A DNA stretch of 64,000 bases from an uncultured Candidatus Saccharibacteria bacterium (GTDB lineage: Bacteria > Patescibacteriota > Minisyncoccia > Phycocordibacterales > JAACPR01), in assembly GCA_964538855.1 (NCBI GenBank), contig CAZIEY010000001.1, positions 18,811 through 82,810 on the forward strand, given 5' to 3'. A program made the position numbers and the translations under genes. Of the stretch, positions 7,954-55,888 are shown piece after piece (the first letter of the stretch is position 1; each line of letters opens with the position of its first letter). The notes under the pieces are model-generated. The model saw only the letters and a list, made by a program, of their open reading frames with translations, did not search any database and was not told the DNA's origin.

Positions 7954-8319
7954 TTATGTCTGGTTAGATATAGATGTTACCACAGTTTTTGCAGCGAGAC
8001 GAGCTTGCTTTATTTGCTCATCCATTGTGCGCAATGTCACTAATTTTTTACGATATGCACGAATTGTAATGGCCCACGAACCGACAAAAGCAAAAAATAA
8101 AAGCACGAGCTGTATGCCCCGTGTTTCAAAAAATATATTAAGTCTTTTTCCTACAAACACTGCCAGAACTGCCGGGATTCCAAAGATGAAAATCGTATTG
8201 AAAGCTAGCCAGAAAAAGCCAGTTATGAAATCATCCCGTCTTTGTTCTAGTTCCTTAACAAGGTCCATAAAATACAAAAATACCCCGATATTATACACGA
8301 AAATGGTCCTTGTGGACAA
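7954..8319 (-). CDS. Small membrane protein heading the ATP synthase operon (AtpI/AtpZ-like); assignment tentative
   Basis: 121 aa with 3-4 transmembrane segments. It lies immediately upstream of atpB on the same strand. Confidence 0.4.
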   Translation of the reverse strand: MSTRTIFVYNIGVFLYFMDLVKELEQRRDDFITGFFWLAFNTIFIFGIPAVLAVFVGKRLNIFFETRGIQLVLLFFAFVGSWAITIRAYRKKLVTLRTMDEQIKQARLAAKTVVTSISNQT

Positions 8320-8495
8320 TGCTTGACAAAAAATGTGGGTGTGATAACGTATTTTGCAGAATTACTGAGTATCACAATTTATGGTCACACTAAACGCAAT
8401 CAAACTACCGACGTGCGTTGGATGTTTGGTCGCTGCCATTATTGAGTGATATTTGGTAATAGATAGAATCCCCAAACAGGATTCGGAAAGGTCAC

Positions 8496-9038
8496 ATGAA
8501 ACGCATCATCACGACGCTTATGACCATCGCCACGGGCTTGACCGCCTACACCGTGGAACCCCAGATCATCGGCACCATCTCCGACAAGGCGACGGGCATC
8601 CAGGATCTCAAGGGCAATCCCATCGTGGCCACCGCCTCGTCCTCGGCCCAGCTCGTGCTGGCCGGCGACAAGGAATCCTACCTGGTCCACCTGTCCATTC
8701 CCCTCAACAACCTGGGCATGGAGGAGGTCGGCCTGGTCTGCAAGGACACCAAGGACGGTGGCATCGCCATCACCGGCGCCATGAACAAGGAGAAGGGTCC
8801 CACCAAAGTGGAACTCAACTCCTACACCACGGACGGCGGATTGCAGATCGTGCTGATCAAGGGCGACACCAAGCAAACGCTGACCATTCCCGACCAGGGA
8901 GTGCGGCAGCAGATGGTGACGCAGCGCAACAAGGCCAGCGGCGAACTGAAATCCAACTTCGCGATCATGCTCGACATGAAGACGAAGTCAACCGCCAGCC
9001 TCGGCCCCGCACCCGCCGGCAATACCTCCGGCACGTAA
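8496..9038 (+). CDS. Hypothetical secreted protein encoded in a strongly GC-rich (about 62% GC) island
   Basis: A signal-peptide-like N-terminus MKRIITTLMTIATGLTAYT. The SD-like GGAAAGG lies 4 nt before the ATG. Codon usage is high-GC (ATC/GGC/ACC), unlike the neighbouring genes. A terminator follows. Confidence 0.55.
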   Translation: MKRIITTLMTIATGLTAYTVEPQIIGTISDKATGIQDLKGNPIVATASSSAQLVLAGDKESYLVHLSIPLNNLGMEEVGLVCKDTKDGGIAITGAMNKEKGPTKVELNSYTTDGGLQIVLIKGDTKQTLTIPDQGVRQQMVTQRNKASGELKSNFAIMLDMKTKSTASLGPAPAGNTSGT

Positions 9039-9039
9039 A

Positions 9040-9110
9040 GCATGGAAGCTCCCCCTAGAGGAGCTGCCCATCACCCCCAACCCTTAACCGGCGAGGGGGT
9101 CTTTTTTTAT
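9040..9110 (+). terminator. Rho-independent terminator after the GC-rich gene
   Basis: A GC stem (ccccc.../gggggtc) is followed by a T7 run at about 9098-9106. Confidence 0.5.
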
Positions 9111-31241: not shown

Positions 31242-31590
31242 TTGGTCTTATTCTATCAAATATAAGCGAAACAAAGTCCAGTTTTCCCTACTTAGACAAT
31301 CAATTTGAAACTGTGAGACGTTTTAAAGTACGCCACAATTTTCTGCCAGCGAGATTTCCGAAGACCGAGGCGATTATTTCTATTTTGAAGATCTCTGAAC
31401 ATGTTTTTGTGAATTATTTTATTAATGATGAAATTCGATATTCGTACCCTTATTATATTCACAGGCTTTTCTTTGTCAAGTTTTCTAGTTTTATATGTAT
31501 GTGGATAACTCCTTTACAAATTCTAGAAAAGTACTACTATAAAGCTTAACCAAGGGGGTAGGAATAGAGATTAATTATTAAACACACACT

Positions 31591-32226
31591 ATGCACAAAA
31601 TTCAAGAAAATATTATTGAAATATTACAAAACAAAAATCTTAGCGGAATGACACTGCGCGAAATTGGCGAATTGGTTGGTGAAAAATTCCCTCAAAAAAT
31701 CAAACACCACTTGGATCAGCTAGTAAAACGTGGACTCATCAAAATCGACAAGACCACTAAAACTATTTCACGAGCAGCGGCAGGTGCAGTGAAAAATACA
31801 CAACTCATCTCCATCCCTATCGTCGGTATGGCAAACTGTGGACCCGCGACAATTTTTGCAAACGAAAACATCGAGGGGTATTTGCGCATCTCAAAAAGCA
31901 TTTTAAGAAAATTTAAAAACATCTTTGCTATTCGCGCTCAAGGAATTTCAATGAACCGCGCACAGGTGAACGGTCAAACTATCGAGGACGGCGACTACCT
32001 CCTCGTCGACAGTGAACAAACCGACCCTCGCAACGGCGACATTGTTCTCTCTGTCATTGACGACATGGCCAATATCAAAAAATACGTCTGGGATGAAGCC
32101 AACAATCAAATCGTACTCGTTTCTCAATCAACAAAAGACATTCCACCAATTTACATTCACGAGGACGACAGCTTTATGATTAACGGCAAGGTGATTCAGG
32201 TGATTAAAAAGCCTAAATTTTCATAG
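31591..32226 (+). CDS. lexA: LexA repressor (S24 peptidase)
   Basis: N-terminal winged HTH. AQGISM carries the catalytic Ser in the Ala-Gly cleavage context, and a downstream Lys is present (KVIQVIKK). Confidence 0.88.
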   Translation: MHKIQENIIEILQNKNLSGMTLREIGELVGEKFPQKIKHHLDQLVKRGLIKIDKTTKTISRAAAGAVKNTQLISIPIVGMANCGPATIFANENIEGYLRISKSILRKFKNIFAIRAQGISMNRAQVNGQTIEDGDYLLVDSEQTDPRNGDIVLSVIDDMANIKKYVWDEANNQIVLVSQSTKDIPPIYIHEDDSFMINGKVIQVIKKPKFS

Positions 32227-32252
32227 TTGACTAACCTGTGGAGAAATCTTGA

Positions 32253-32283
32253 CGTTTTTTGTGATTGGTGTATATTAGTCAGG
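32253..32283 (+). promoter_or_regulatory. Promoter TTGACG-16-TATATT driving the YGK micro-gene
   Basis: TTGACG at 32253. It is preceded by TGTGGAGA 4 nt upstream. Confidence 0.4.
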
Positions 32284-32393
32284 TACAGCACCGATGCTGA
32301 GTCGTTCTTTGCAGAGATTGAGCCTTGCTCGACCTCTATTTTGAATGCTTGGCAAAAGTGCGATGTGAAACGAACCCCCACACGGAGATGACG

Positions 32394-32468
32394 ATGAACA
32401 TCCAGTACAGCTACGGCAAGTACGGCAAGTACGGCAAGTACGGTCGCAACACCGCCGCCGGCTACTAA
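32394..32468 (+). CDS. 24-aa Tyr/Gly/Lys-repeat peptide MNIQYSYGKYGKYGKYGRNTAAGY (GC-rich micro-gene)
   Basis: GGAG at 32384-32387 lies 6 nt before the ATG at 32394. It contains three exact TACGGCAAG repeats. A terminator follows at 32506-32545. Confidence 0.4.
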   Translation: MNIQYSYGKYGKYGKYGRNTAAGY

Positions 32469-32505
32469 GCTGGCAAACCGTGAAGGTCGCAAAGACCATC
32501 ACGGT

Positions 32506-32545
32506 CAAGCCTCGGACGCGTACCCACGCGCCCGAGGCTTTTACT
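32506..32545 (+). terminator. Intrinsic terminator after the YGK peptide gene
   Basis: agcctcgg...ccgaggct followed by TTTT. Confidence 0.55.
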
Positions 32546-32585: not shown

Positions 32586-32978
32586 ATGAAAAACTTTATA
32601 AATGAATTTAAGTCTTTTGCCATCAAAGGCAACATGATTGATTTAGCAGTCGGTGTGATTATTGGTACGGCGTTTGGAAAAGTCGTCAGCTCGTTGGTGT
32701 CAGACATTATCATGCCACCACTCGGATGGATTACTGGCGGAATTGATTTTTCAGAGAAGGTTTGGAATTTGCCAACAATTTTGGGTGTCGGTTCACCAGT
32801 TGCTGTCAATTACGGATTGTTTTTAAATAGCCTCATAAACTTTATCATCGTGGCGTTTGCAATTTTTATGGTCATCAAACAAATTAATCGCTTTAAGAAA
32901 GTTGAGGAAGCAAAACCAGCAACGACACCAGAGGATATTATGTTGTTGCGAGAAATTCGAGACAGTTTGAAGAAATAG
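32586..32978 (+). CDS. mscL: Large-conductance mechanosensitive channel
   Basis: [40 protein letters not shown] is the canonical MscL N-terminus. Confidence 0.92.
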
Positions 32979-36110: not shown

Positions 36111-36947
36111 ATGCCACCAAAGACGCCGATTCCATTCGTCCATAACAAATGCCTCATGCAGGCCTGCAGAAATCTGCGGATTCCGTTCACGATTTTGGAG
36201 GAACATGGGAATTTTTTGAAGCTCGAGATACACAGCAAAATTTTGTTTTTTGTGAATTTCAATGTGCCATGGAATAATTCGGGTGCCGAAAAAATCGCGC
36301 GCGACAAGGGCTACTCGTATCAACTTCTTCACGAACACGTGCGCATGCCGAAATCGATCGCCTATTTTGATCCGCGCTACACCGACGCGAAATACGAAGT
36401 CTATCGAAAATTTAAGAACATTCCGGAAATTGTGCGAGATATTTGCACACAATTCACATTTCCTTTTGTCATTAAAATGAATAGTGGTTCAAAAGCTCGT
36501 AACATGTTCATTTGCCACGACGCAGAAAAAGTCACTCGGGCCTTGCGCTGTATCTTTAATAAAAAAAGCCGCCATTACGATTATGCGGCAACTGCACAGG
36601 AGCTCATCGACATCGCCGACGAATTCCGTGTCATCATGTTTCGAGGCGAAATTATGCTCGTCTACAAGAAAAATCCGGCACGAGTGACGAAAATTAAATC
36701 GAACGCCAAGGCCGAAATTGTAACCGACAAAAAGCTACTCGCGAAATTGCAAAATTTTGTTCGGCCGATTTATGACATATCAAATATTGAATATGTCGCG
36801 CTTGATGTGGCGATGAATAAACAGAGTGAGCTCTGTCTATTTGAATTAAACGTCGCACCCGGTTTCGATTATTTTGTGCGTCATAACGGCGAGCAACCGC
36901 TTGTGAAAATGTTTGAGAGGATTTTGGAGAAAGCGATGGAGAAGTGA
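36111..36947 (+). CDS. ATP-grasp domain protein (RimK-like ligase fold; substrate unknown)
   Basis: FPFVIKMNSGSKARNMF is an ATP-grasp central-domain pattern. Size is about 280 aa. Confidence 0.55.
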   Translation: MPPKTPIPFVHNKCLMQACRNLRIPFTILEEHGNFLKLEIHSKILFFVNFNVPWNNSGAEKIARDKGYSYQLLHEHVRMPKSIAYFDPRYTDAKYEVYRKFKNIPEIVRDICTQFTFPFVIKMNSGSKARNMFICHDAEKVTRALRCIFNKKSRHYDYAATAQELIDIADEFRVIMFRGEIMLVYKKNPARVTKIKSNAKAEIVTDKKLLAKLQNFVRPIYDISNIEYVALDVAMNKQSELCLFELNVAPGFDYFVRHNGEQPLVKMFERILEKAMEK

Positions 36948-36948
36948 A

Positions 36949-37848
36949 TTATTTCTCCCCCACATCATGCCCACCAAACTGATTTCGCAACGCCGAGACG
37001 ACTTTGCCAGTGTAGGTTGGATTGCCGGTTGATTTTTTGCGGAAGTCGAGAGAACCTTTGATGATCGGAGTTTTGACGCCGAACTTACGCGCCGCTTTGA
37101 CGGTCCACTCGCCTTCGCCACTGTGAGAAACTTCGCCAGAAATACCGTTCAATTCAGTTGTATTTTTTGCAAACGCCTGACCGAGCCAACCGACGAGACG
37201 TGATTCGATCACCGACCCGTGATTATAAATTCGCGCCACCTCCGCGAGATCAAAATTAAATTCGGACTTTTTGAGCACTTCGAATCCCTCACCAATCGCC
37301 TGCATCATGCCGTATTCGATGCCGTTGTGCACCATTTTTGCAAAGTGACCCGCGCCCGACGCGCCCATGTACGCAAAGCCCTGCGCAACCGACAAATCCG
37401 CAAAGAGCGGAGTCAATTCGTCGTAGAGAGCCCGTTCGCCACCAATCATGAGACACGCCCCGTTGCGCGCTCCACCCGGACCGCCCGAAGTACCGATGTC
37501 CATAAAGCGAATGCCTTTGCGAGTCAATTTTTTGGCACGCTTGACCGTTTCGGTGTACGGCGAGTTTCCTCCGTCAATCAAAATGTCGCCCTTCGACAAG
37601 AATGGCGCGACCCGTGCAATCATTTCATCGACTGCTTGCCATGGCACCATGAGCCAGACAATTTTGCGCTCGTTGCCGAACTTTTCAAAAATTTCTGCGA
37701 TGCTGTGCGCTGCGATTGCCCCGCGAGTCGCGAGCTGGTCCGCCTTTTCCGGACTGCGATTCCACGCAACCACCTCGTGCCCCTTTTCCAAAAGCCGCTC
37801 CGCCTGCCCCATCCCCATTTTCCCAAGTCCAATGTATGCAATTTTCAT
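36949..37848 (-). CDS. gnd: 6-phosphogluconate dehydrogenase (short, YqeC-like form)
   Basis: MKIAYIGLGKMG Rossmann motif plus 6PGDH-like blocks. The start is moved to the ATG at 37848, which has TATAAT 6 nt upstream. The track start at 37896 adds 16 residues. Confidence 0.8.
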   Translation of the reverse strand: MKIAYIGLGKMGMGQAERLLEKGHEVVAWNRSPEKADQLATRGAIAAHSIAEIFEKFGNERKIVWLMVPWQAVDEMIARVAPFLSKGDILIDGGNSPYTETVKRAKKLTRKGIRFMDIGTSGGPGGARNGACLMIGGERALYDELTPLFADLSVAQGFAYMGASGAGHFAKMVHNGIEYGMMQAIGEGFEVLKKSEFNFDLAEVARIYNHGSVIESRLVGWLGQAFAKNTTELNGISGEVSHSGEGEWTVKAARKFGVKTPIIKGSLDFRKKSTGNPTYTGKVVSALRNQFGGHDVGEK

Positions 37849-38473: not shown

Positions 38474-39883
38474 TTACTTGAGTCTTTTCACTGCTTCCAC
38501 CTCACTCCCCCTCTCATACACGCCGAGCTTCACTTTTTTCACGGCTTCCATCACTTTTGAAATCAGGCGCCACTGCAAAGCGACTTCTTCGGTGCTCGTG
38601 AACAATGTTTGATCGCCGAGAATGCAGTCGTAGAGAACTTTTTCATACGCGTCGGACAGCATCGACATGCCGGACTCATATTTGAATGAGAGCGTTTTTT
38701 CTTCGAGCCCAAATGCGAGCCCAGGAGTTTTCTTCCAAAACGAAACGGAGATATTTTCTTCGGGCTGAACGTTGATAGTGATTGTGTTGCCATAGTGACA
38801 AATGTCGTCGACTGGGCAGACGCAACTTTCTTCCTCGCGGAATGTGATTTTTATTTGCACCAGATTTTTAGAAAGCGCCTTGCCATAGGTAATCAAAAAC
38901 GGCACGTTTTTCCAGCGGCGGTTTGCGACGTTCAATTTGAGCTCGAAAAATGTTTCGGTCGTCGAGTCTGGTTTAACGCCGGCTTCGTTCGTGTAGCCTG
39001 CATATTGTGCCACACGAATAAATTCGTCGGGAGTGCGGCTGGCTGGGACAATGTCCGCCAAAACTCGTGCGCGCGCTGTGCGGATTTTGTCGGCGGTGAT
39101 TCCCTGTGGATCTTCCATCGCGATCAAGGCGAGCATTTGCAAAATGTGATTTTGTCCGACGTCACGGAGGGCCCCGATTGGATCATAAAAATTCCCACGC
39201 TCTGACACCGTGTTTGTCTCGAGAAAATTAATTTCGACGCGATCAATCAAATCACGATTCCAAATCGGCCCAAAAATCGGATTCGCAAAACGAAACGCGA
39301 TGATGTTTTGGAGAGCTTCTTTTGCTAAATAATGATCAATGCGGAACACTTGGTTTTCATCGAACAATTTCCCGAGCAATTTATCGAGCCGAAGCGCACC
39401 TTCTGGGTCGCTGCCGAATGGTTTTTCTACGAGCACGCGTGTCCACGTCCCCTCTGCATGTTTGTCGCACGGCGTCACCAAATTCGCCTCGTCGATGTGC
39501 GTGAAGACCGGCTCATACAAATGCGGTGGCACTGCGAGATAGAAGAGTTTGTTCGTGCAGACGCCGATTCGTTCGTCCGTCTTTTTCAAGTACGCACCGA
39601 GATTGTCGTAACTCTCAGTTGTGTTGATGTCGCCTTGGACGTAGCGGAAATTTTCAACAAAAGTTTTCATAAGACTCGCGTCGATGTTTGGTCGCTTTTT
39701 CAAAAGCGAATCAGTCACGAATTTTTGATAGTCGGCGTCCGACAGCGGTTTACGCGAAAATCCAACAATAGTCACTGTGCTCGGCAAAAGATGCTTGGAA
39801 TATAAATCAAAAAGCGCCGAAAAAATCTTGTTCTGCGCGAGGTCGCCTGTGCCGCCGAAGATGACGAATGTGATGGGTTTCAT
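38474..39883 (-). CDS. zwf: Glucose-6-phosphate dehydrogenase
   Basis: N-terminal FVIFGGTGDLA NADP motif, plus the RIDHYLGKE-like block (DHYLAKE). The start is at the ATG at 39883 (MKPITF), with TACAAT 8 nt upstream. The track ORF extends to 39994. Confidence 0.88.
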   Translation of the reverse strand: MKPITFVIFGGTGDLAQNKIFSALFDLYSKHLLPSTVTIVGFSRKPLSDADYQKFVTDSLLKKRPNIDASLMKTFVENFRYVQGDINTTESYDNLGAYLKKTDERIGVCTNKLFYLAVPPHLYEPVFTHIDEANLVTPCDKHAEGTWTRVLVEKPFGSDPEGALRLDKLLGKLFDENQVFRIDHYLAKEALQNIIAFRFANPIFGPIWNRDLIDRVEINFLETNTVSERGNFYDPIGALRDVGQNHILQMLALIAMEDPQGITADKIRTARARVLADIVPASRTPDEFIRVAQYAGYTNEAGVKPDSTTETFFELKLNVANRRWKNVPFLITYGKALSKNLVQIKITFREEESCVCPVDDICHYGNTITINVQPEENISVSFWKKTPGLAFGLEEKTLSFKYESGMSMLSDAYEKVLYDCILGDQTLFTSTEEVALQWRLISKVMEAVKKVKLGVYERGSEVEAVKRLK

Positions 39884-39918
39884 ATGGGAATATTGTAGCA
39901 TTTTGATGCTTATTTTTA

Positions 39919-39963
39919 AGGGTTTATGGACACTTGACTTTATAGATATATATGCTATTATAA
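39919..39963 (+). repeat. Promoter module R2, GGGTTTATGGACACTTGACT-N16-TATTAT (copy 2 of 2)
   Basis: TTGACT at 39934-39939. It is back-to-back with the zwf promoter. Confidence 0.6.
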
Positions 39964-40032
39964 GAACAAGGGAGTTTCGCTTACTCCACAACAAGGTCCA
40001 CAGACCGCAAAAGCGAGAAAGGAGAATAAACC

Positions 40033-40152
40033 ATGAAAAGACTCATCTGCGCTGTTGCTATCATCGCCACAATGGCGAGTTGCAGCGCCCCGCGCGGGGA
40101 GAAAATCCCCGGGATGGTGTGGGAGAAATCCCATGTCCCGTCGATGCCGTAG
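40033..40152 (+). CDS. 39-aa putative secreted or lipo-peptide (MKRLICAVAIIATMASC...) driven by module R2
   Basis: AAAGGAG SD lies 8 nt before the ATG. A signal-peptide-like N-terminus has a Cys after the hydrophobic core. GC-rich. A double-hairpin terminator follows at 40153-40206. Confidence 0.35.
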   Translation: MKRLICAVAIIATMASCSAPRGEKIPGMVWEKSHVPSMP

Positions 40153-40206
40153 AACCCCCACGGGGGTCTTACGTCAGCGCCCTGATCACTCGGGGCGTTT
40201 TTTATT
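40153..40206 (+). terminator. Intrinsic terminator (two GC hairpins plus T6)
   Basis: cccccacggggg and gcgccc...ggggcg followed by TTTTTT. Confidence 0.5.
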
Positions 40207-40223
40207 TAAAATACAAGAATCAA

Positions 40224-51341: not shown

Positions 51342-51451
51342 GCTCTTTATTTTAGCATGTTTTAAGAATTGAAAAGCCCGATGAGACAAAAAAGTTAAAT
51401 CAACAGCACCACACTGAATTTTATGAATATGAAATACAAAAATAAGTGGTA

Positions 51452-51502
51452 TAAAAAAATCCTCGGCATTACTACCGAGGACTCTTCCGCAAACCACGGA
51501 AG
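51452..51502 (-). terminator. Terminator (two hairpins) after the small minus-strand gene
   Basis: cttccg...cggaag and cctcggta...tgccgagg followed by T7 on the minus strand. Confidence 0.5.
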
Positions 51503-51506
51503 ATAT

Positions 51507-51680
51507 TCAGCCGATGGCGATGTCCACCAAGATCATTGCTCCGCACAACGCTCCAAGGGCCATCATCGGCAACGACTTCACCGCTTTCCACAGCGTGACC
51601 TCAGGGTCGACGCGAGGGGCGGCTCGATAGCGCATGAGTCCTAGCGCTATCGCATAAACTCCCAGACAAAGAGCAGTCAT
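51507..51680 (-). CDS. 57-aa hydrophobic peptide (MTALCLGVYAIALGLMRYRAAPRVDPEVTLWKAVKSLPMMALGALCGAMILVDIAIG), GC-rich micro-gene
   Basis: GGAGG lies 5 nt before the ATG. A TTGACA-17-ATAATA promoter is upstream and a terminator downstream. It is absent from the ORF track because it is under 60 aa. Confidence 0.4.
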   Translation of the reverse strand: MTALCLGVYAIALGLMRYRAAPRVDPEVTLWKAVKSLPMMALGALCGAMILVDIAIG

Positions 51681-51780
51681 AAACACCTCCGGTTACCTCT
51701 ACTCCAATAATTTTGAAGTTTATGAGGTTGATAATATTATATATCATATAGCGATATTGTCAAGTATCTCAATGAGTTGC

Positions 51781-54499: not shown

Positions 54500-54690
54500 G
54501 GAGAAACAAAAAGCCCCTCCGAATTCATGTTGATAAATTCGCAGGGGCGATTTTGTCGCGGTGCCACCCTGTTTGTTGCTCATTATGACGTCTTTCGGGC
54601 GTCCAGTTCCGAGGGCTTCTACGTGCGCCGCACATTGCAAACGCATTTCCTGCCCCGTATCTCGCCGGTGTCTGCCGGGTCATTGATATA
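54500..54690 (-). promoter_or_regulatory. T-box riboswitch leader upstream of aspS
   Basis: The minus strand carries AACAGGGTGGCACCGCGA, which matches the T-box core AGGGTGGNACCGCG. The terminator gcccctgcgaat/attcggaggggc plus a T-run lies just upstream of the aspS SD. A candidate specifier GAC sits in the loop ccggcaGACAccgg. A TTGCAT-N16-TATACT promoter is upstream. Confidence 0.65.
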
Positions 54691-54721
54691 TACAGTATAC
54701 GGAAGTGAGAGCGAAATGCAA

Positions 54722-55888
54722 CTAGAATTTATCTGCTGCGTCTTCTGCCAATTCTTGAGCCTCTTCAGCAGCATCAATTGCATCCTCATAATCTTCATCA
54801 TCGAATGCCTCTTCAGCTTCATCAAGAGCATCTCGTGCATCGTCGAGTAATTCTTCTGCTTCATCAATATCATCTTCATCTTCATCATTATCCTTTGCAT
54901 CGTCAATTGCCTCCTCCGCATCATCAATTGCATCTTTTGCATCATCAATTGCATCTTCGGCTTCGTCCGCTTCATCATTTTCACCAATTGCGTCTTCGGC
55001 ATCTTTAGCTAAATCTTCCGCTTCCTCGGCAAGATCGATGGCCTCTTCATAATCTTCATTATCCATTGCCTCTTCAGCTTCTTCTAATTTTTGCTCTGCT
55101 TCATCAAGCAACTCTTCCGCCTGGTCAACATCTTCATCATTATTATCTGCGTCTTCTATTTTTTGCTCCGCAGCATCAATTCTATCTTCGGCTTTATCAA
55201 TTGCATTATCTGCTTCATCTTCATCAGTTTCACCACCTGCGTCTTCGTATGCATCAACTGCATTATCATACGCATCTTCAGCAGATTTCAATGCATCTGC
55301 ATAATCTTTCGAGAAATACGCATCGATTGCATCGAACAAATCAGTTCGCGCATCGTCAAGATTATCATCAGCTACATTTGTATCCTCACCATCGTCTTGG
55401 GCATCATCAATTTGCTCATCTGCATCTTCGACTGCTTTAATTGCCTTTTTAATCATTGCCTCAGCATCTCTTTGTTGAAAAGATATCACAGGAGAAGTGT
55501 TCGATACTGGAGGTGGAGTAACTACAACCGGAGCAGTTGAAGTAACAGGAGAAGCAGTTGCCGTATTCAAACTTGCAAATTTTGCACGAGACAACGGGCC
55601 GAAAGTCCCTGTGGCAGGAGAAATACCTTTCGCAATTTGCCATTTTTGAACCGCAACGCGTGTAAGTGGTCCGAATTTATTTGTCTCTGCTCCAGCAGAT
55701 CCAGGGCCTGTGCTTGTAATCACATATCCATTACTATTCAAATATTTTTGAAGGCAACGAACTTCTTCGCTCACAACCCCCTCTTCTAAATCAAGTGTAA
55801 AAACACAAGACGCCGCTGACGCTGGTGTCGCCACAAATGCCACCATCACCAGTGAACCCGCGATAATAATTTGTTTATATGCTTTCAT
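54722..55888 (-). CDS. Secreted peptidoglycan-binding-domain protein with a ~250-aa poly-acidic (Asp/Glu/Ala) repetitive tail
   Basis: A signal peptide MKAYKQIIIAGSLVMVAFVATPASA is taken as the start; the track ORF extends to 55939. The PG_binding_1-like block is LQKYLNSNGY...FGPLTRVAVQKWQ. The rest is D/E/A repeats such as DEAEEAIDDAKDAIDDAEEAIDDAKD. Confidence 0.65.
   Translation of the reverse strand: MKAYKQIIIAGSLVMVAFVATPASAASCVFTLDLEEGVVSEEVRCLQKYLNSNGYVITSTGPGSAGAETNKFGPLTRVAVQKWQIAKGISPATGTFGPLSRAKFASLNTATASPVTSTAPVVVTPPPVSNTSPVISFQQRDAEAMIKKAIKAVEDADEQIDDAQDDGEDTNVADDNLDDARTDLFDAIDAYFSKDYADALKSAEDAYDNAVDAYEDAGGETDEDEADNAIDKAEDRIDAAEQKIEDADNNDEDVDQAEELLDEAEQKLEEAEEAMDNEDYEEAIDLAEEAEDLAKDAEDAIGENDEADEAEDAIDDAKDAIDDAEEAIDDAKDNDEDEDDIDEAEELLDDARDALDEAEEAFDDEDYEDAIDAAEEAQELAEDAADKF

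Follow-up and report, generated by a model that had tools for sequence, protein, structure and literature searches.

Between lexA and mscL in a 64,000-nt stretch of contig CAZIEY010000001.1 (the window), from an AT-rich bacterium of the candidate phyla radiation (CPR; Paceibacteria) with a genome of 42% GC, lies a micro-gene for a Tyr-Gly-Lys repeat peptide. We consider it moderately probable that this is an autonomous small-protein gene occupying a hypervariable cassette slot that a species group of Paceibacteria holds between these two genes. The Tyr-Gly-Lys gene is one allele of a promoter-anchored variable cassette, because a shared 43-nt promoter is followed by differing cargo across lineages. 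The promoter, with a TGTGGAnAA box abutting its −35 hexamer, is fixed at the slot, and lineages carry downstream of it different GC-rich units, each made up of a leader, a Shine–Dalgarno (SD) sequence, an open reading frame (ORF) and a terminator. According to the proposal, the transcript would start ~7 nt after TATATT and open with a protective 5′ stem-loop, translation would begin from GGAGA-N5-ATG, and the transcript would end at a double hairpin. The Tyr-Gly(-Lys) peptide is fast-evolving, its length shifting by in-frame gain or loss of repeats (9-bp and 24-bp units). Foreign composition and a discordant allele phylogeny point to exchange of cassettes among lineages, and the cassette would be regulated with lexA by a LexA-like repressor or DnaA, the signal being DNA damage or replication status.

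A micro-gene with its own signals

In the window, the lexA–mscL spacer measures 359 nt and separates an S24/LexA-type repressor gene (31591–32226) from mscL (32586–32978), a position given by the initial annotation and confirmed with Pfam. The gene order at the locus is xfp(−), lexA(+), mscL(+), and the neighbours identified with Pfam (xfp, ackA, lexA, mscL, pgi and zwf) are housekeeping genes. The element consists of the following features, where the start of the leader is placed from the −10 hexamer.

32237–32245, plus strand: box TGTGGAGAA, 3 nt 5′ of the −35 hexamer
32249–32276, plus strand: sigma-70-type promoter-like site TTGACG-16-TATATT, 10 of 12 consensus matches
32283–32393, plus strand: structured leader of ~110 nt
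32286–32299, plus strand: 5′-terminal RNA hairpin P1, CAGCAccgaTGCTG (CAGCA-ccga-TGCTG), predicted fold
32304–32310, plus strand: conserved leader motif GTTCTTT; a second leader motif, ACCCCCACACGGAGA, contains the SD sequence
32384–32388, plus strand: ribosome-binding site (SD) GGAGA, 5 nt before the ATG
32394–32468, plus strand: micro-ORF MNIQYSYGKYGKYGKYGRNTAAGY, 24 codons and TAA (ATG at 32394, TAA at 32466–32468)
32412–32443, plus strand: tandem repeat TACGGCAAG (Tyr-Gly-Lys), 3.6 copies with a 9-bp period, score 64, 100% matches
32477–32505, plus strand: 3′ hairpin 1 (ACCGTGAAGGTC / GACCATCACGGT), predicted fold
32507–32545, plus strand: predicted intrinsic terminator, a 15-bp GC-rich hairpin (32507–32540) followed by TTTT

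The initial annotation had described a stand-alone unit with its own promoter, a ~110-nt leader, an SD-led micro-ORF and a terminator, and the sequence bears this out; the described features are present, with slightly shifted coordinates (the ATG lies at 32394) and an additional box upstream. Tandem Repeats Finder agreed with that annotation that the TACGGCAAG array inside the small ORF is perfect, and it is the sole perfect array of at least three copies in the window; an exact 32-nt run of period 9 lies far beyond what chance would produce. The element is also richer in GC than its neighbours, as had been noticed, with a local GC content of 0.53–0.60 versus 0.25–0.40 in the flanks. The same strain is present in three assemblies from independent sequencing runs, two of which, when aligned, were 100% identical over the element.

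Terminal inverted repeats and a target-site duplication were not found at the element, ruling out a transposon or miniature inverted-repeat transposable element. On the minus strand, a 98-aa ORF (32196–32492) mirrors the frame rich in GC at third codon positions (GC3); it has no SD sequence and its GC content at first positions would be 0.96, and it was rejected as a candidate gene. The single promoter-like site on that strand is weak (9 of 12 matches).

One promoter and differing cargo in close relatives

Two sets of relatives were compared. The first comprised 46 lexA loci from GTDB genomes, retrieved with the LexA protein, the closer ones being mostly Paceibacteria/Parcubacteria-type CPR metagenome-assembled genomes; the second comprised the contigs of LexA protein matches at 92–99% amino acid identity (L238–L251). 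The order xfp(−), lexA(+), mscL(+) is conserved, and the lexA–mscL spacer is ~20–110 nt long in the 19 relatives whose mscL is co-oriented with lexA. Neither nhmmer nor blastn found a homologue of the element in the 46 GTDB loci. The second set showed the following contents of the gap, listed with LexA identity to the window.

L244 and L245, LexA 92%: empty 48-nt spacer
L238 and L240, LexA 99%: MTIQYGKYGKNRYGKYGKNRYGKYGNAPA, 29 aa (ORF read in L238; L240 ends inside the leader)
L239, LexA 99%: MTIPYGAPYGATGYTAGY, 18 aa
L251, LexA 99%: MNTSKHLRPESTDRPTMPVAAHRNVCDMPVASDVLAT, 37 aa
L250, LexA 94%: MNIKHLRPESTGQPTMLVGIVDN, 23 aa
L246, LexA 95%: basic peptide, 39 aa
L247, LexA 95%: basic peptide, 41 aa, homologous to that of L246
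L242, LexA 94%: 43-aa peptide; two modules in the slot
L249, LexA 94%: 136-aa protein with a signal peptide
L241, and the first module of L242 and L243, LexA 94%: a different promoter, then 5-codon mini-ORFs

Behind one promoter, the gap is filled by different cargo in nine lineages whose LexA identity is 94% or higher, and the ORFs of the nine cassette alleles have 18, 23, 24, 29, 37, 39, 41, 43 and 136 codons. The close lineages are not clones, their lexA genes being 81–94% identical at the nucleotide level and differing by 0.20–0.69 at fourfold-degenerate sites. The 43-nt promoter, from the box to the −10 hexamer, opens every occupied slot except that of L241 and is 73–95% identical in all pairs, an identity that persists where the fourfold-degenerate sites of lexA differ by ~50%, near saturation. 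Leaders are 67–83% identical within allele groups and, short motifs aside, near the shuffle baseline between groups; the motifs GTTCYTT and ACCCCA..GGAGA recur in the leaders of all alleles. Between allele groups the ORFs and 3′ untranslated regions (UTRs) are at the shuffle baseline, that is, unrelated, and the ORF is the most variable segment. A profile of the 75-nt 5′ module, searched with nhmmer, matched this slot only, in these lineages. Since sister lineages carry unrelated cargo in the same slot, the alleles would be united by regulation rather than by biochemistry.

An insertion of gene-like junk, i.e. a recently acquired foreign fragment without function, would account for the absence of the element from every related lexA locus retrieved from GTDB species representatives, for a composition and an SD-led signal foreign to the host, and for the lack of homologues in protein searches. 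However, the promoter is conserved well above the neutral expectation at synonymous divergence near saturation, the Tyr-Gly allele is present in three lineages separated by 20–42% fourfold divergence with its GC3 and start context undecayed, and the hairpins carry compensatory changes. We regard this explanation as decidedly improbable.

Other arrangements were observed in the gap. In L241 (3137–3365), L242 (3137–3310) and L243, the mini-ORFs MRSFS and MKIDY, each ending at a stop codon, lie behind a strong AAGGAGG, with GC-rich hairpins and a terminator downstream. The cassettes of L250 (1100–1200) and L251 (1490–1560) each have, after the first ORF and ahead of the terminator, another tiny SD-led ORF, encoding MRARDSPNDTPPIPT and MMRARDRP, respectively. 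The closest GTDB representatives (LexA 85%) have mscL in inverted orientation; an unrelated element of ~160 nt, with a perfect 22-nt inverted repeat at its ends (CATCATAAATAAAATACCCGTA...), occupies the gap of L001 (4633–4796); and in L025 (4633–4702) the intergenic spacer is replaced by a 22-aa Ala/Pro/Arg-rich C-terminal extension of lexA.

A Tyr-Gly allele in three lineages

Homologues of the window peptide (MTIQYGKYGKNRYGKYGKNR... and MTIPYGAPYGATGYTAGY) begin at the same ATG in L238 (29 codons) and L239 (18 codons), whose lexA genes have ~90% nucleotide identity, showing that the ORF is conserved beyond the nucleotide repeat. The three members of this group (window, L238 and L239) keep M-[NT]-I-[QP]-Y and four to six Tyr-Gly units, Lys being lost in L239, and all length differences among them are in frame. 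The window allele is a mosaic: its Tyr-Gly-Lys core is as in L238, and its C-terminus and both 3′ hairpins are as in L239 (3′ UTR 84% identical). The terminator is kept, with changes, in L239; the terminators of the other alleles are unrelated. Although L238 and L239 differ at 20% of the fourfold-degenerate sites of lexA, their cassettes are just 50–67% identical. This disagreement between the history of the cassettes and that of the flanking genes points to allele exchange. A high-GC relative with the same lexA-promoter box, L025 (63% GC, GC3 0.82–0.88), makes high-GC Paceibacteria plausible donors of the cassettes, as far as composition can tell. As a side observation, mscL of L025 is 68% identical to that of the window versus 50–61% for most lower-GC relatives.

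The cargo ORFs have a coding signature

In the window ORF, 23 of 24 third codon positions are G or C versus 19 of 48 first and second positions (Fisher p = 2e-6), and 16 of 17 independent codons end in G or C when the repeat unit is counted once. Three-base periodicity was not found in the leader or the 3′ UTR of the window element; the ORF alone shows it. GC3 is 0.83–1.00 in every cargo ORF versus ~0.45 at first and second positions (Fisher p = 5e-3 to 8e-9), and 94–100% versus ~40–58% (first and second positions pooled) in the Tyr-Gly alleles. By contrast, host genes, ATP synthase and enolase included, have a GC3 of 0.25–0.60. The window contains two GC3 outliers, the Tyr-Gly-Lys ORF (0.96) and a 180-aa ORFan at 8496–9038 (0.89), both of which follow the box pattern described below. 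Their high GC3 relative to host genes, together with UTRs that lack periodicity, indicates that the cargo ORFs are coding and compositionally foreign. A GC3 of at least 0.94 is maintained in three Tyr-Gly lineages that are 0.20–0.42 neutral divergence apart, which suggests selection or repeated replacement. GGAGA-N5-8-ATG is kept in all nine cassette alleles, and the same SD–ATG context opens the 136-codon ORF of L249, which is clearly protein-sized. Judged from these features, the micro-ORF is most likely a translated coding sequence, or was one very recently.

A structured non-coding small RNA of ~260 nt, in which the GC-rich island reflects RNA structure and the ORF is incidental, is in our estimation unlikely. 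Such a reading draws on the predicted fold of the 271-nt transcript, which has a z-score of −6.2 against shuffled sequences (−5.0 for the opposite strand), on the fact that GC-rich islands in AT-rich genomes are typical of structured RNAs, on 5′ and 3′ hairpins that keep their pairing despite sequence change, and on an ORF length plausible by chance. It is difficult to reconcile with the strong periodicity confined to the ORF, with the SD–ATG context in all nine alleles and ORFs that are plainly protein-coding (136 codons in the slot and 180 codons at 8496), and with the ORF being the most variable segment rather than the most conserved one. Rfam 15 gave no match on the element at a local E-value of 1 or less, at the gathering score, or at a window-wide E-value of 0.05 or less. 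ARAGORN, run on the entire window, detected neither a tRNA nor a tmRNA.

Hairpins at both ends of the predicted transcript

In six of eight alleles the predicted fold includes a hairpin located 10 nt downstream of the −10 hexamer, with stems that differ by allele (CAGCA/TGCTG, CAGTG/CACTG, CGGCA/TGCTG, GGC/GCC and GGCU/GGCC). In L242 and L250, GGC/GCC arms are visible by eye at the position of P1, where the predicted folds pair differently. RNAalifold returned no consensus structure for the eight leaders, owing to poor alignment across allele groups, and the hairpins were therefore checked sequence by sequence. This bears on the leader palindrome for which the initial annotation had proposed a comparison with the LexA box: its sequence is not conserved and its pairing is kept, arguing against a DNA operator, and from sequence it is read as a 5′-terminal RNA stem-loop. 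The stem-loops at the start of the ompA and aprE leaders stabilise their mRNAs, and by analogy the 5′ stem-loop here probably does the same. At the other end, the 3′ hairpins of the window and L239 are related by compensatory substitutions, the A.A mismatch of hairpin 1 being replaced in L239 by a G-C pair through changes on both sides.

The 3′ hairpin pair is very stable, with a predicted free energy of ~−43 kcal/mol, and no antiterminator is evident. These properties also bear on the idea that the element is a ribosome-dependent attenuator, i.e. a leader peptide controlling mscL. The element does immediately precede mscL, in the same orientation, and has a terminator after its run of repeated codons, but ~20 relatives lack it and regulate mscL without it, other alleles hold ORFs of up to 136 codons, and mscL has a separate TGnTATACT promoter at a distance of 6 nt from its start codon, suggesting that its transcript is leaderless. 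We find an attenuator barely credible.

The cassette promoter shares a box with the lexA promoter

When the regions 5′ of lexA from 26 relatives were aligned, TGTGGA[TA]AAC was the most conserved element besides the promoter hexamers, lying 7 nt upstream of the −35 hexamer. In the window it corresponds to the following site.

31500–31508, between the divergent xfp and lexA promoters: lexA-promoter box TGTGGATAA, conserved across the clade (L001–L043)

The TGTGGAnAA box is present in all nine cassette alleles, TGTGGAAAA being its form in most of those other than the window's. The window contains three instances of the pattern TGTGGANAA-N3-5-TTKAC (0.06 expected), one each at the lexA promoter, the cassette and position 8311, and in the 46 GTDB lexA loci the pattern is confined to lexA promoters. 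Because no other element outside the promoter hexamers is as well conserved in the clade's lexA promoters as the box, the cassette is probably co-regulated with lexA, via a LexA-like repressor or DnaA; TGTGGATAA is the exact complement of the DnaA-box consensus, TTATCCACA. With these candidate regulators, expression would be tied to DNA damage or replication status. The initial annotation had raised damage-inducible expression because of the proximity to lexA; the link would run through the shared box and not through the leader palindrome.

In one subclade, TGTGGAAAACTTTTTGACA forms an imperfect 19-bp palindrome overlapping the −35 hexamer, a sequence arrangement suggesting a site that would suit a dimeric repressor. 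What flanks the lexA box varies by subclade: one has direct TTTTCTAG / TTCTAGAAAA elements there, another TTGTCAA repeats. According to the account given in a citing paper, the LexA motif of Patescibacteria is a direct repeat.

Several observations weigh against an autonomous, lexA-linked small-protein gene. Part of the periodicity of the ORF is due to the repeat itself, and a 24-codon ORF in sequence of 56% GC has a chance probability of ~0.4. An SD-like motif precedes 8 of 60 window genes, making SD-led translation of the micro-ORF unusual here, and many window genes have a TATAAT-like hexamer 5–8 nt before the ATG, mscL among them (TGTTATACTatccctATG), which suggests that leaderless mRNAs are widespread in this organism; given both patterns, a long leader with an SD sequence is atypical for the genome. 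The searches described below found no homologue, partner gene or domain for the peptide. The box is non-palindromic, its spacing to the −35 hexamer is one nucleotide shorter in the cassette than at lexA, and the lexA promoter carries TTCTAGAAAA elements that the cassettes lack; since the box equals the complement of a DnaA box, the link to LexA may be wrong. Finally, transcription start, translation and regulation were all deduced from sequence.

The peptide and comparable systems

The window peptide has a mass of 2.75 kDa, an isoelectric point of 9.7 and a grand average of hydropathy (GRAVY) of −1.17, and it lacks both a signal peptide and a transmembrane segment. A 47-aa ORF query yielded no candidates in a word-indexed search of 5.8 billion proteins, a 30-aa query had no matches among 1.84 billion representatives in an exhaustive HMMER search, and the cargo peptides belong to no NCBIfam or PADLOC family. 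BLAST of the element against phages and plasmids gave just chance matches of 27–42 nt, and an exact 21-mer of the 3′ hairpin had no matches in viral contigs. The initial annotation had proposed a search for Tyr-Gly-Lys repeat ORFs. This gave no protein matches in databases and did recover the repeat in the tails of bacterial tyrosine kinases (BY-kinases): among the matches listed for a degenerate YGKYGKYG pattern in metagenome and viral contigs were BY-kinase tails and microsatellite-like noise, and most of those listed in long ORFs (>190 aa) were kinase tails following ...LNKVD or ...NGIDM...

The BY-kinases CpsD, CapB and Wzc share the motif of the peptide in their C-terminal (YGX)n tyrosine cluster, and in CpsD the (YGX)4 repeat is the autophosphorylation site (PMC4574921). 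Unlike these tails, the window peptide is free-standing, and the similarity is of low complexity and may be convergent. No kinase domain was found upstream of the element or anywhere in the window, and 16 kinase sequences aligned by tblastn to the repeat only. With no similarity upstream of the repeat in these tblastn alignments, a decayed 3′ end of a kinase gene was rejected.

The initial annotation had also raised a precursor of a ribosomally synthesised and post-translationally modified peptide (RiPP) or a substrate for Tyr cross-linking. As a RiPP or cofactor precursor in the style of triceptides, PqqA or MftA, the peptide would be of suitable size (18–29 aa), with repeated aromatic-X-basic motifs and a Gly-Tyr end in two of three alleles. 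However, Pfam searches of the called genes over ~60 kb revealed no adjacent radical-SAM enzyme, P450, protease or dedicated exporter. The nearest ATP-grasp gene (36111–36947) is 3.6 kb away across unrelated genes, a MacB-type pump is 5–8 kb away, the L239 peptide has no Lys, the alleles end differently at the C-terminus (AGY versus NAPA), and unrelated cargo replaces the peptide in sister lineages. As these searches revealed neither a maturase or kinase nor an Rfam family or protein homologue, the idea is without support and we consider it very improbable. The adhesive and antimicrobial roles that the initial annotation also mentioned are speculative.

Among known systems, the morons of temperate phages, defined as autonomous promoter–gene–terminator units inserted between adjacent genes (PMC4378225), are similar in organisation. 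Like them, the element has a predicted promoter and terminator of its own around a single ORF, separates two genes that relatives have side by side, and has a composition unlike that of its neighbours (GC3 0.96 versus 0.25–0.60; local GC 0.53–0.60 versus 0.25–0.40). Unlike a moron, it lies among housekeeping genes and not in a phage or prophage, no phage similarity being found at the element, and it is the promoter that is the resident, conserved part whereas the cargo is swapped.

In Gram-positive bacteria, lexA has small SOS genes as neighbours that are poorly conserved and not homologous to one another, namely those of the cell-division inhibitors YneA, SosA, ChiZ and DivS (PMC6851548). The micro-gene resembles them in being small, adjacent to lexA and little conserved between lineages, and its promoter shares a box with that of lexA, by sequence comparison. 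By contrast, these inhibitors are divergently transcribed, genus-conserved membrane proteins, whereas the micro-gene lies downstream of lexA on the same strand and encodes a hydrophilic peptide; the slot cargo, moreover, is replaced even between lineages with 99% identical LexA. A cell-division inhibitor of the YneA/SosA class was rejected, considering the location 3′ of lexA on the same strand and a hydrophilic product without a transmembrane segment.

The SOS-induced type I toxin mRNAs tisB and dinQ combine a stress-type promoter with a long structured 5′ UTR, a short ORF and a strong terminator. The cassettes are alike in promoter type, structured 5′ UTR, ORFs of 18–43 codons and strong terminator. 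A type I toxin was nonetheless rejected: the peptides are hydrophilic (GRAVY −1.17) and not transmembrane, and no antisense RNA was identified at the element, where the minus-strand promoter-like site is weak. Further afield, the NLP and caenacin families of nematodes are Gly/Tyr-rich antimicrobial peptides with YGGYG motifs, direct tests of their activity being lacking according to a review (PMC6780910). They share short length, Tyr/Gly repeats, rapid diversification and a stress induction that is proposed here with the Tyr-Gly alleles, two of three of which are cationic too; they differ in being eukaryotic and secreted with signal peptides, whereas the window peptide has no export signal.

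A second unit and other GC-rich islands

A second GC-rich unit (60–68% GC) occupies 8311–9110 on the plus strand, with a promoter-like TGTGGACAA-TGC-TTGACA and a leader of ~170 nt. It encodes the 180-aa ORFan (8496–9038, plus strand; GC3 0.89), which has a hydrophobic N-terminus, and ends in a terminator, ACCCCC...GGGGGTCTTTTTTT. The ORF is preceded by a weaker GAAAGG motif and by a leader divergent from that of the cassette. A search of 5.8 billion proteins gave no homologue of its product, for which Pfam, NCBIfam and PADLOC likewise have no family, and its AlphaFold2 model (pLDDT, predicted local distance difference test, 39) was unusable.

We also entertain a wider proposal, possible but rather unlikely: the lexA–mscL gap would be a dedicated one-cassette expression slot (with two modules in L242) whose fixed promoter senses replication or DNA damage via the TGTGGAnAA (DnaA-box-like) element and whose GC3-rich ORFan mini-genes are swapped among lineages, their extreme codon bias being actively maintained, the whole forming an integrase-less, integron-like system for strain-specific stress-induced effectors, with 8311–9110 as a second unit. 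A true integron cassette was rejected, with no integrase in the Pfam lists of the window and no conserved 3′ recombination site seen among the alleles.

Other islands stand out in the window. A 39-aa putative lipoprotein, MKRLICAVAIIATMASCSAPRGEKIPGMVWEKSHVPSMP, is encoded at 39930–40210 on the plus strand by a GC-rich mini-gene that has AAGGAGA, a terminator and a TTGACT-17-TATTAT promoter; upstream of it, TATGGACAC resembles the box. Two further GC-rich intergenic islands lie at ~51440–51700 (minus strand), with a 57-aa membrane-like ORF, AGGAGG and a terminator, and at 54519–54708, 190 nt long with no ORF assigned and no Rfam match. A 6-phosphogluconate dehydrogenase-like gene (36949–37848, minus strand) forms a GC island of up to 65% with a GC3 of 0.60, and the glucose-6-phosphate dehydrogenase gene (38474–39901, minus strand) has a GC3 of 0.57; both are markedly above the rest of the genome and may have been acquired horizontally. 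A 388-aa gene (54722–55888, minus strand) contains a 21-bp tandem repeat at 54792–54958 (~8 copies, 65% matches).

Implications

The genomes of CPR bacteria are tiny and contain little non-coding DNA, and almost none of their small proteins and regulatory logic has been characterised. The locus supplies a micro-protein family with comparative support and a concrete case of fast cassette turnover between conserved genes, in lineages whose LexA proteins are 94–99% identical. The box shared with lexA could mark out a Paceibacteria regulon that responds to replication or damage, and a GC3 of ~0.9 is maintained, unexplained, in genes of a 42% GC genome. With low confidence, we suggest that the disordered peptide acts as a strain-specific, stress-induced effector, be it a tyrosine-cluster mimic, a nucleic-acid binder or an antimicrobial-like peptide. 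If the cargo does consist of strain-specific effectors, the slot would bear on how episymbiotic CPR cells deal with their hosts or competitors.

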